64,000 nucleotides of DNA, from the NCBI RefSeq assembly GCF_000027125.1, contig NC_017626.1; one strand, given 5' to 3'. Below the pieces are notes generated by a model that was not told where the DNA came from, ran no database searches, and saw nothing but the letters and a program-made list of their open reading frames with translations. This document shows, piece after piece, positions 30,270 to 30,302 of this stretch (position 1 is the stretch's first letter; the number at the start of each line of letters is the position of its first letter). The translations under genes were made by a program, and so were the position numbers. The DNA is from Escherichia coli 042 (GTDB taxonomy: Bacteria; Pseudomonadota; Gammaproteobacteria; Enterobacterales; Enterobacteriaceae).

Positions 30270-30302
30270 TTGTAGAGGCGTCATCAGTACATGCCTCTAC
30301 AA
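30270..30302 (-). terminator. Perfect 10-bp-stem inverted repeat between yhiL and yhiJ (possible terminator or protein-binding site)
   Basis: ttgtagaggc-(13 nt)-gcctctacaa read directly; no clear U-tract. Confidence 0.3.

Follow-up and report, generated by a model that had tools for sequence, protein, structure and literature searches.

A stable stem-loop between the Escherichia coli paralogues yhiL and yhiJ: a candidate 3'-end element of a Rho-terminated mRNA

Results

The yhiL-yhiJ locus

The window, i.e. the whole stretch of 64,000 nucleotides of E. coli 042 DNA analysed here, contains the paralogous genes yhiL and yhiJ:

30368-31957, minus strand: yhiL, with DUF6860 and DUF4049; the upstream gene, which carries the hairpin described below in its 3' untranslated region (3' UTR)
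28484-30106, minus strand: yhiJ, with DUF4049; the downstream paralogue of YhiL

The genes were assigned according to the RefSeq annotation of K-12 and of strain BEC1-S17-ESBL-09, which is 100% identical to the window over the tested region. YhiJ and YhiL share 34% sequence identity. In the direction of transcription, yhiL and yhiJ are followed by yhiY, yhiI, and rbbA; yhiM is located upstream and is divergent. The TAA stop codon of yhiL and the ATG start codon of yhiJ are separated by a spacer with a G+C content of 33%. The original prediction had placed this spacer correctly and given it a length of 260 bp; it comprises 261 bp (30107-30367). In the window, yhiL is intact; in K-12 it is the pseudogene b4660, split into reading frames of 424 and 130 amino acids. 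The K-12 frameshift lies approximately 430-470 nt upstream of the hairpin (L003 7221-7245; NC_000913.3 ~3633220-3633244).

The spacer has no match in 1256 of 5426 complete E. coli genomes, so that the yhiL-yhiJ pair is accessory. The DUF4049 family is narrow: about 50 hits, mostly fragments, were found among 1.84 billion representative proteins; these are YhiL, YhiJ, a chimera, and fragments. A homologous-protein search listed near-identical E. coli proteins only, and searches of PDB and PADLOC with both proteins gave no match. Both proteins contain a conserved LGDxTGDRF...LAGNHE motif as well as a sub-threshold match to the Pfam family Metallophos (E = 0.005), which suggests that DUF4049 proteins might be divergent calcineurin-like phosphoesterases. 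A search of contigs for orthologous loci in other species returned as sole match a 311-bp contig (NZ_BQUV01000091.1, L012) of the Bradyrhizobium sp. Ce-3 assembly. It contains a fragment that is 94% identical to E. coli YhiL and is almost certainly an assembly contamination.

The locus is variable in further respects. The last ~35 codons of yhiL (window 30368-30475; L003 6853-7010; L004 2637-2800) fall into two sharply different allele classes, with about 25 and 54 of 79 sampled copies, respectively. Many megablast alignments end at position 30399, and on either side, spacer included, identity amounts to 94-99%. The pattern suggests mosaicism due to recombination or replacement of the C-terminus. 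At this locus, some Escherichia-like genomes (L013, L014, L015) contain one chimeric gene only (L014 4001-5293; protein P0122, 430 amino acids), the product of which is YhiL-like at the N-terminus (48% identity) and YhiJ-like at the C-terminus (61%). The GDxxGDR...GNHE core is absent from P0122, as is the whole spacer from its locus. Immediately downstream of the chimeric gene follow yhiY-yhiI-rbbA, and its upstream neighbours include an omptin gene and an EAL-domain gene; the AT-rich region preceding the chimeric gene contains about five tandem copies of AATATTAAAAT (L014 3797-3846).

A perfect inverted repeat downstream of yhiL

A repeat finder and a pattern search both identified a perfect inverted repeat in the spacer, which consists of two 12-bp arms and a 13-nt loop (GATTGTAGAGGC-N13-GCCTCTACAATC, window 30268-30304). 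Its plus-strand sequence is GATTGTAGAGGC GTCATCAGTACAT GCCTCTACAATC. The repeat had been predicted as a perfect 10-bp repeat at 30270-30302; it is present, and the perfect arms are longer by the amount given here. Since both genes are on the minus strand and the repeat begins 63 nt past the yhiL stop codon, it is indeed located on the transcribed side downstream of yhiL, as had been proposed; it ends 161 nt ahead of the yhiJ start codon. In terms of the sense RNA, the element is composed as follows:

30268-30304, minus strand: core hairpin, sense RNA GAUUGUAGAGGC-AUGUACUGAUGAC-GCCUCUACAAUC, with a 12-bp stem and a 13-nt loop
30293-30304, minus strand: 5' arm of the stem (RNA sense), with the variants C30293U and A30298U
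30280-30292, minus strand: loop of 13 nt, polymorphic at 30288 (A/U/G), 30290, and 30282
30268-30279, minus strand: 3' arm of the stem (RNA sense), with the variants C30275U and C30277U
30260-30267, minus strand: tail past the stem, UUUAGGGA; three U followed by purines, no U-tract
30241-30326, minus strand: predicted extended imperfect hairpin, with the outer helices 30316-30326/30241-30251 and 30307-30313/30260-30266

A chance match is excluded for a repeat of this length: among 2000 dinucleotide-preserving shuffles of the spacer (loop of 3-20 nt), the longest perfect arm reached at least 10 bp in 1.1% and 12 bp in none. The 64-kb window as a whole contains 10 repeats of at least 10 bp and 6 of at least 12 bp, compared to 0.75 and 0.05 in shuffled sequences. 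Other perfect inverted repeats of 10-14 bp are found at 33409-33444, between the convergent genes yhiM and yhiN, and at 39669-39700, 44983-45013, 54322-54350, 11919-11948, 23152-23184, and 48395-48417. Most of the other repeats in the window have outer arms made of A/T runs and look like bidirectional terminators; the yhiL-yhiJ repeat has no such arms. A terminator-like palindrome, AAAAAACCGACGCAAAGTCGGTTTTTT, occurs twice in the window (45440-45472 and 45674-45700), the copies being 234 bp apart.

Copy number

Of the 5426 complete E. coli genomes, 4170 gave a match to a 104-nt query comprising the hairpin, in each case at a single place, and plasmids gave none (blastn, word size 11). The search for the same palindrome elsewhere in the genome, which the original prediction had suggested as a check, thus revealed a single copy per genome in these 4170 genomes and no other copy in the window. 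In agreement with this finding, a comparison of the spacer with the window by self-blast detected no other similar sequence in the 64 kb, and the exact palindrome had 0 matches in viral contigs. Because a tandem duplication might have copied the hairpin together with the gene, the region downstream of yhiJ was searched for a paralogous hairpin; no similarity was found there. A permissive Rfam search of positions 28000-32500, accepting matches up to E = 10, gave none at the hairpin. Membership in the REP/BIME elements or in another dispersed repeat family is ruled out by the single copy per genome and by the missing Rfam match.

RNA folding and terminator features

The core of the sense RNA folds with -18 kcal/mol (z -6.3), and 0 of 200 shuffled sequences folded as well. 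For the antisense RNA, the value is -19.8 kcal/mol; it folds equally well, because the element is palindromic. The extended sense fold (30241-30326) is predicted to reach -33 kcal/mol (z -4.9) with 11+7+12, i.e. about 30, base pairs in the allele of the window.

The stem is a 12-bp helix with 6 G-C pairs and is directly followed by UUU. Past the stem, the next 8 nt read UUUAGGGA, with 3 U, on the sense strand and GAUUAAGA on the other strand; the sequence upstream of the stem is UUCUUAAUC, with no A-tract. A scan of both strands for consensus terminators, which demanded a loop of 3-8 nt and at least 5 U within 8 nt, found nothing at the repeat. The program TransTermHP allows loops of 3-13 nt, and the median loop length of mapped bacterial terminators is 4 nt (PMC12207403); a loop of 13 nt is at the upper limit of TransTermHP and outside the range of our scan. 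The repeat hence fails two defining features of intrinsic terminators, namely loop length and U-tract, and the earlier statement that a U-tract is missing holds.

A weaker variant of the same idea is a weak intrinsic terminator of yhiL, at which the hairpin, together with the proximal UUU, would directly release RNA polymerase. The strong stem, the immediate UUU, and the location 63 nt past the stop codon are in accord with this assumption, as is the halving of reads across the site in untreated K-12 cells (see below). However, the long loop, the content of only 3 U in 8 nt, the missing A-tract, and the empty scan speak against it. Furthermore, there is no Term-seq peak in the published tables, and the drop in reads is sensitive to bicyclomycin. 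We consider this explanation unlikely.

Variation among E. coli alleles

The alleles of ten genomes and of 80 metagenome contigs, the latter collected by means of a flank-anchored pattern, were aligned with MAFFT. The usable sample consisted of 85 spacers, all within E. coli; these fall into 44 haplotypes for the spacer and 20 for the 111-nt element. The fixed anchors of the search pattern bias the 5 outer nucleotides of each arm to invariance; allowing for this effect leaves 14 free stem positions.

Four stem positions are variable: C30293U, C30275U, C30277U, and A30298U. The first one converts the loop-closing pair to U·G and occurs in 8 of the 20 haplotypes, on three different loop backgrounds; A30298U introduces a mismatch and was found in one strain only. 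In the sense RNA, each of the three C-to-U changes turns a G-C pair into G·U, whereas A·C mismatches would result in the antisense RNA and the dyad symmetry of the DNA is broken. If G·U is counted, all 12 pairs are kept in 19 of the 20 haplotypes. That three of four changes preserve pairing corresponds to p ~0.02 for equal substitution rates and to p ~0.11 for a 2:1 transition bias. No compensatory double changes, i.e. no covariation, were found in the stem among the 20 haplotypes. Variable columns make up 4 of 14 free stem positions and about 25% of the remaining spacer, so that conservation of the stem is no higher than that of its flanks. The original prediction had named missing conservation of the palindrome in orthologous loci as part of what would refute it. 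By this test the element is not refuted: it is present in 4170 of 4170 spacer-carrying E. coli genomes, but it is no better kept than the flanking sequence.

These data bear on the assumption that the repeat is a neutral by-product without a selected role, for example a quasi-palindrome perfected by template switching in AT-rich, horizontally acquired DNA, in which case all effects on RNA would be incidental. A stem that varies like its flanks and shows no covariation speaks for this assumption, and the perfect core is nested in a longer imperfect palindrome. In addition, the locus is dispensable, as indicated by its absence from the 1256 genomes mentioned above, the yhiL pseudogene of K-12, and the deletion of the spacer in the chimeric allele. 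On the other hand, a perfect 12-bp repeat is not expected by chance, and it is fully paired in all haplotypes except one; it also coincides with a Rho-termination coordinate (see below). Moreover, exonucleases will be hindered by a transcribed 3' UTR hairpin of -18 kcal/mol even if it was never selected for this effect. Neutral origin is a serious possibility, but we regard it as less likely than the explanation preferred below.

The extended hairpin is less well preserved in its outer helices. The pair 30316/30251 fails in 15 of the 20 haplotypes, K-12 included, and strain N96 has two further uncompensated mismatches in the outer helices. This variation has to be weighed if one assumes that the extended hairpin (30241-30326) might be a site at which RNase III cuts a yhiL-yhiJ co-transcript, giving halves that differ in stability. 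At the RNase III sites of rpsO-pnp and in the early intercistronic hairpins of T7, a long duplex is located between cistrons, and the near-continuous duplex predicted here occupies a comparable position between two cistrons; with 30 predicted pairs in the allele of the window, it exceeds the roughly 20 near-continuous pairs expected of an RNase III substrate. However, a structure whose outer helices are not kept among alleles makes a role as processing site improbable.

In strain ZH142, a copy of IS1 is inserted in the spacer (L002 ~4192-4960; window ~30233-30241), and the same holds for a metagenome locus (L020); the target duplication is AAATTTCT(T). The insertion separates the hairpin from the yhiJ promoter at a point immediately beyond the base of the extended hairpin and leaves the hairpin itself intact on the yhiL side.

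The yhiJ promoter and regulation of the locus

The spacer contains a single TATAAT motif on the sense strand (30196-30191), which is preceded by TTAAGG at a distance of 19 nt:

30191-30221, minus strand: putative yhiJ sigma-70 promoter, TTAAGG-19 nt-TATAAT (K-12: TTGAGG)

This putative promoter occupies the region 46-77 nt downstream of the hairpin. Shimada 2014 lists a constitutive, SELEX-mapped RpoD promoter of yhiJ, 'TTGACG-19-TATAAT', as well as H-NS binding in the yhiJ/yhiL spacer (PMC3946193). We infer that both promoters are the same; the published -35 element differs by one base. A promoter at 30191-30221 would place the hairpin in the 3' UTR of yhiL and not in the leader of yhiJ. It is plausible that the hairpin decouples yhiL and yhiJ, because the SELEX-mapped sigma-70 promoter of yhiJ is located downstream of it.

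Another reading is that the palindrome acts as DNA: a dimeric regulator or another protein might bind to it and control the yhiJ promoter from about -70 to -120. The perfect dyad symmetry upstream of the SELEX-mapped promoter, in a region bound by H-NS, would suit an operator. In addition, yhiJ and yhiL were reported to be LexA-dependent and damage-induced, without having a good SOS box (PMC11002266). However, the spacer contains no LexA box: neither CTG-N10-CAG nor any sequence within 7 mismatches of the LexA consensus was found. The motif search covered the LexA consensus; the motifs of other regulators were compared informally. Dimeric regulators do not typically recognise 12-bp arms with a centre-to-centre distance of 25 bp, and many haplotypes carry a change in one arm (C30293T in 8 of 20) that has no counterpart in the other arm. 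Furthermore, no second copy exists in any of the E. coli genomes searched, and the half-site does not recur beyond chance: the window contains 6 other matches with at most 2 mismatches, compared to about 4 expected ones. A function as operator is thus very unlikely.

Coincidence with a Rho termination region in K-12

Adams 2021 scanned the K-12 genome for bicyclomycin-dependent read-through (PMC7815308). Supplementary file 2 of this study lists a Rho termination region of the class 'orphan' on the minus strand, with 3632784 as best coordinate. Without bicyclomycin, 73 reads were counted upstream and 36 downstream of this coordinate; with bicyclomycin, the numbers were 182 and 249, which resulted in a Rho score of 2.77 (p = 5.2e-6) (PMC7815308). 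The K-12 hairpin, whose stem is identical to that in the window and whose loop differs at one base, is located at NC_000913.3 3632752-3632788. The Rho coordinate hence falls into the hairpin, namely into the 5' arm, whereas a protected end would be expected 32 nt further downstream, at the 3' base of the stem; as the coordinate was derived from sparse reads in windows of 800 nt, its resolution is in the range of tens of nucleotides. According to the authors, such coordinates probably mark processed 3' ends and not release sites (PMC7815308).

The pseudogene status of yhiL in K-12 is relevant for the interpretation of this signal. Due to the frameshift, translation presumably does not extend over the final ~390 nt of yhiL, and this may account for a Rho-dependent signal at this site. 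The sole C-rich, G-poor stretch lies inside yhiL (30551-30650, C/G 2-2.75), 250-350 nt upstream of the hairpin; in combination with the frameshift, it would provide untranslated RNA on which Rho could load. The bicyclomycin signal may in part reflect de-repression of the H-NS-silenced yhiJ promoter and not read-through, because the downstream reads exceed the upstream reads in the presence of bicyclomycin (249 versus 182).

In the interval 36325xx-36328xx, supplementary files 1 and 3 of Adams 2021 contain no Term-seq 3' ends; the locus is weakly expressed and silenced by H-NS. Likewise, the TERMITe, SMRT-Cappable-seq, and TRS supplements have no entry at the hairpin. As the genes are poorly expressed, these missing 3' ends constitute weak evidence. 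One gene downstream, the same study lists strong Term-seq 3' ends on the minus strand, 43 and 65 nt upstream of yhiI (window ~28161 and ~28183; PMC7815308). These ends (K-12 3630645 and 3630667) are flagged as Rho-dependent and associated with an upstream open reading frame (yhiY) and constitute a documented attenuation site.

A class of stem-loops which fits this situation was described by Dar & Sorek 2018: in E. coli, Rho-dependent transcripts have precise 3' ends, which are located shortly past stable stem-loops (PMC6061677). These stem-loops have neither U-rich tails nor upstream A-tracts and guard the RNA against PNPase and RNase II (PMC6061677).

Discussion

The explanation that we prefer, and to which we assign a probability of about one half, is that the repeat is an ordinary RNA hairpin that marks and protects the 3' end of a Rho-terminated yhiL mRNA, upstream of the own promoter of yhiJ. 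The element would then act as RNA and not as DNA, i.e. as a stable stem-loop in the 3' UTR of yhiL. Transcription past yhiL would be ended mainly by Rho, either in the AT-rich, H-NS-bound spacer or early in yhiJ. PNPase and RNase II, which proceed in 3'-to-5' direction, would subsequently trim the transcript back to the hairpin, such that the 3' end of the yhiL mRNA is both set and protected; the three U after the stem may add a slight contribution of hairpin-driven termination. As yhiJ would be transcribed from its own promoter 46-77 nt downstream, the two paralogues would be largely uncoupled.

The original prediction had favoured a protein-binding palindrome or an RNA stability element over an intrinsic terminator. 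A canonical terminator is ruled out, and among the two remaining options an RNA element at the 3' end is favoured, since the hairpin on the sense strand is strong, coincides with the Rho region of K-12, and has mostly C-to-U variants that keep G·U pairs; the protein-binding option found no support. A more elaborate scheme is conceivable, in which the hairpin serves as a conditional insulator between two paralogues that are silenced by H-NS and induced by DNA damage: the 30-pair form might be processed, e.g. by RNase III, or bypassed in certain conditions only, thus switching yhiJ between read-through from the yhiL promoter and its own promoter. We regard this scheme as highly improbable.

If the preferred role of a 3'-end hairpin of the yhiL mRNA is confirmed, the element would be a further case of a stem-loop that lacks a U-tract and defines the end of a Rho-terminated mRNA. 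It would also delimit the transcription units of yhiL and yhiJ, both of which are uncharacterised DUF4049 genes restricted to Escherichia. Outside annotation the significance is small, and neither a new question nor a new mechanism arises.

Comparison with known elements

With intrinsic terminators, the hairpin shares a G-C-containing 12-bp stem soon after the stop codon and U residues directly next to it. It differs from them in having three U only, a loop of 13 nt instead of the median of 4, and no A-tract, and in its absence from the terminator scan and the Term-seq tables. REP/BIME elements, which Newbury et al. are said to have described in 1987 as stabilisers of mRNA 3' ends, are likewise intergenic palindromes that could block 3'-5' exonucleases between co-directional genes. 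In contrast to these, the yhiL-yhiJ repeat occurs in single copy, has no likeness to REP sequences, and is AT-rich outside the top of the stem. The intercistronic RNase III hairpins of rpsO-pnp and the T7 early region resemble it with respect to the predicted imperfect duplex of ~30 pairs between two cistrons, whereas the outer helices of the yhiL-yhiJ hairpin are poorly kept among alleles.

The closest relationship exists to the stem-loops of Dar & Sorek. It differs from these in that the loop of 13 nt is longer than usual in this class, the RNA 3' of the hairpin is without the mild enrichment of C over G, and the published 3'-end tables searched here list no end at its base. For the 200 nt that follow the hairpin, 50-nt windows gave C/G ratios of 0.36-1.33; such an enrichment is an average tendency of Rho-dependent ends and not a strict requirement. 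As in this class, the yhiL hairpin is stable, lies on the sense strand 3' of a gene, and possesses neither a U-tail nor an A-tract. Likewise, it is located in a region of bicyclomycin-sensitive read-through and belongs to a weakly expressed gene. The hairpin is most likely a new, previously unannotated example of this known type of element.
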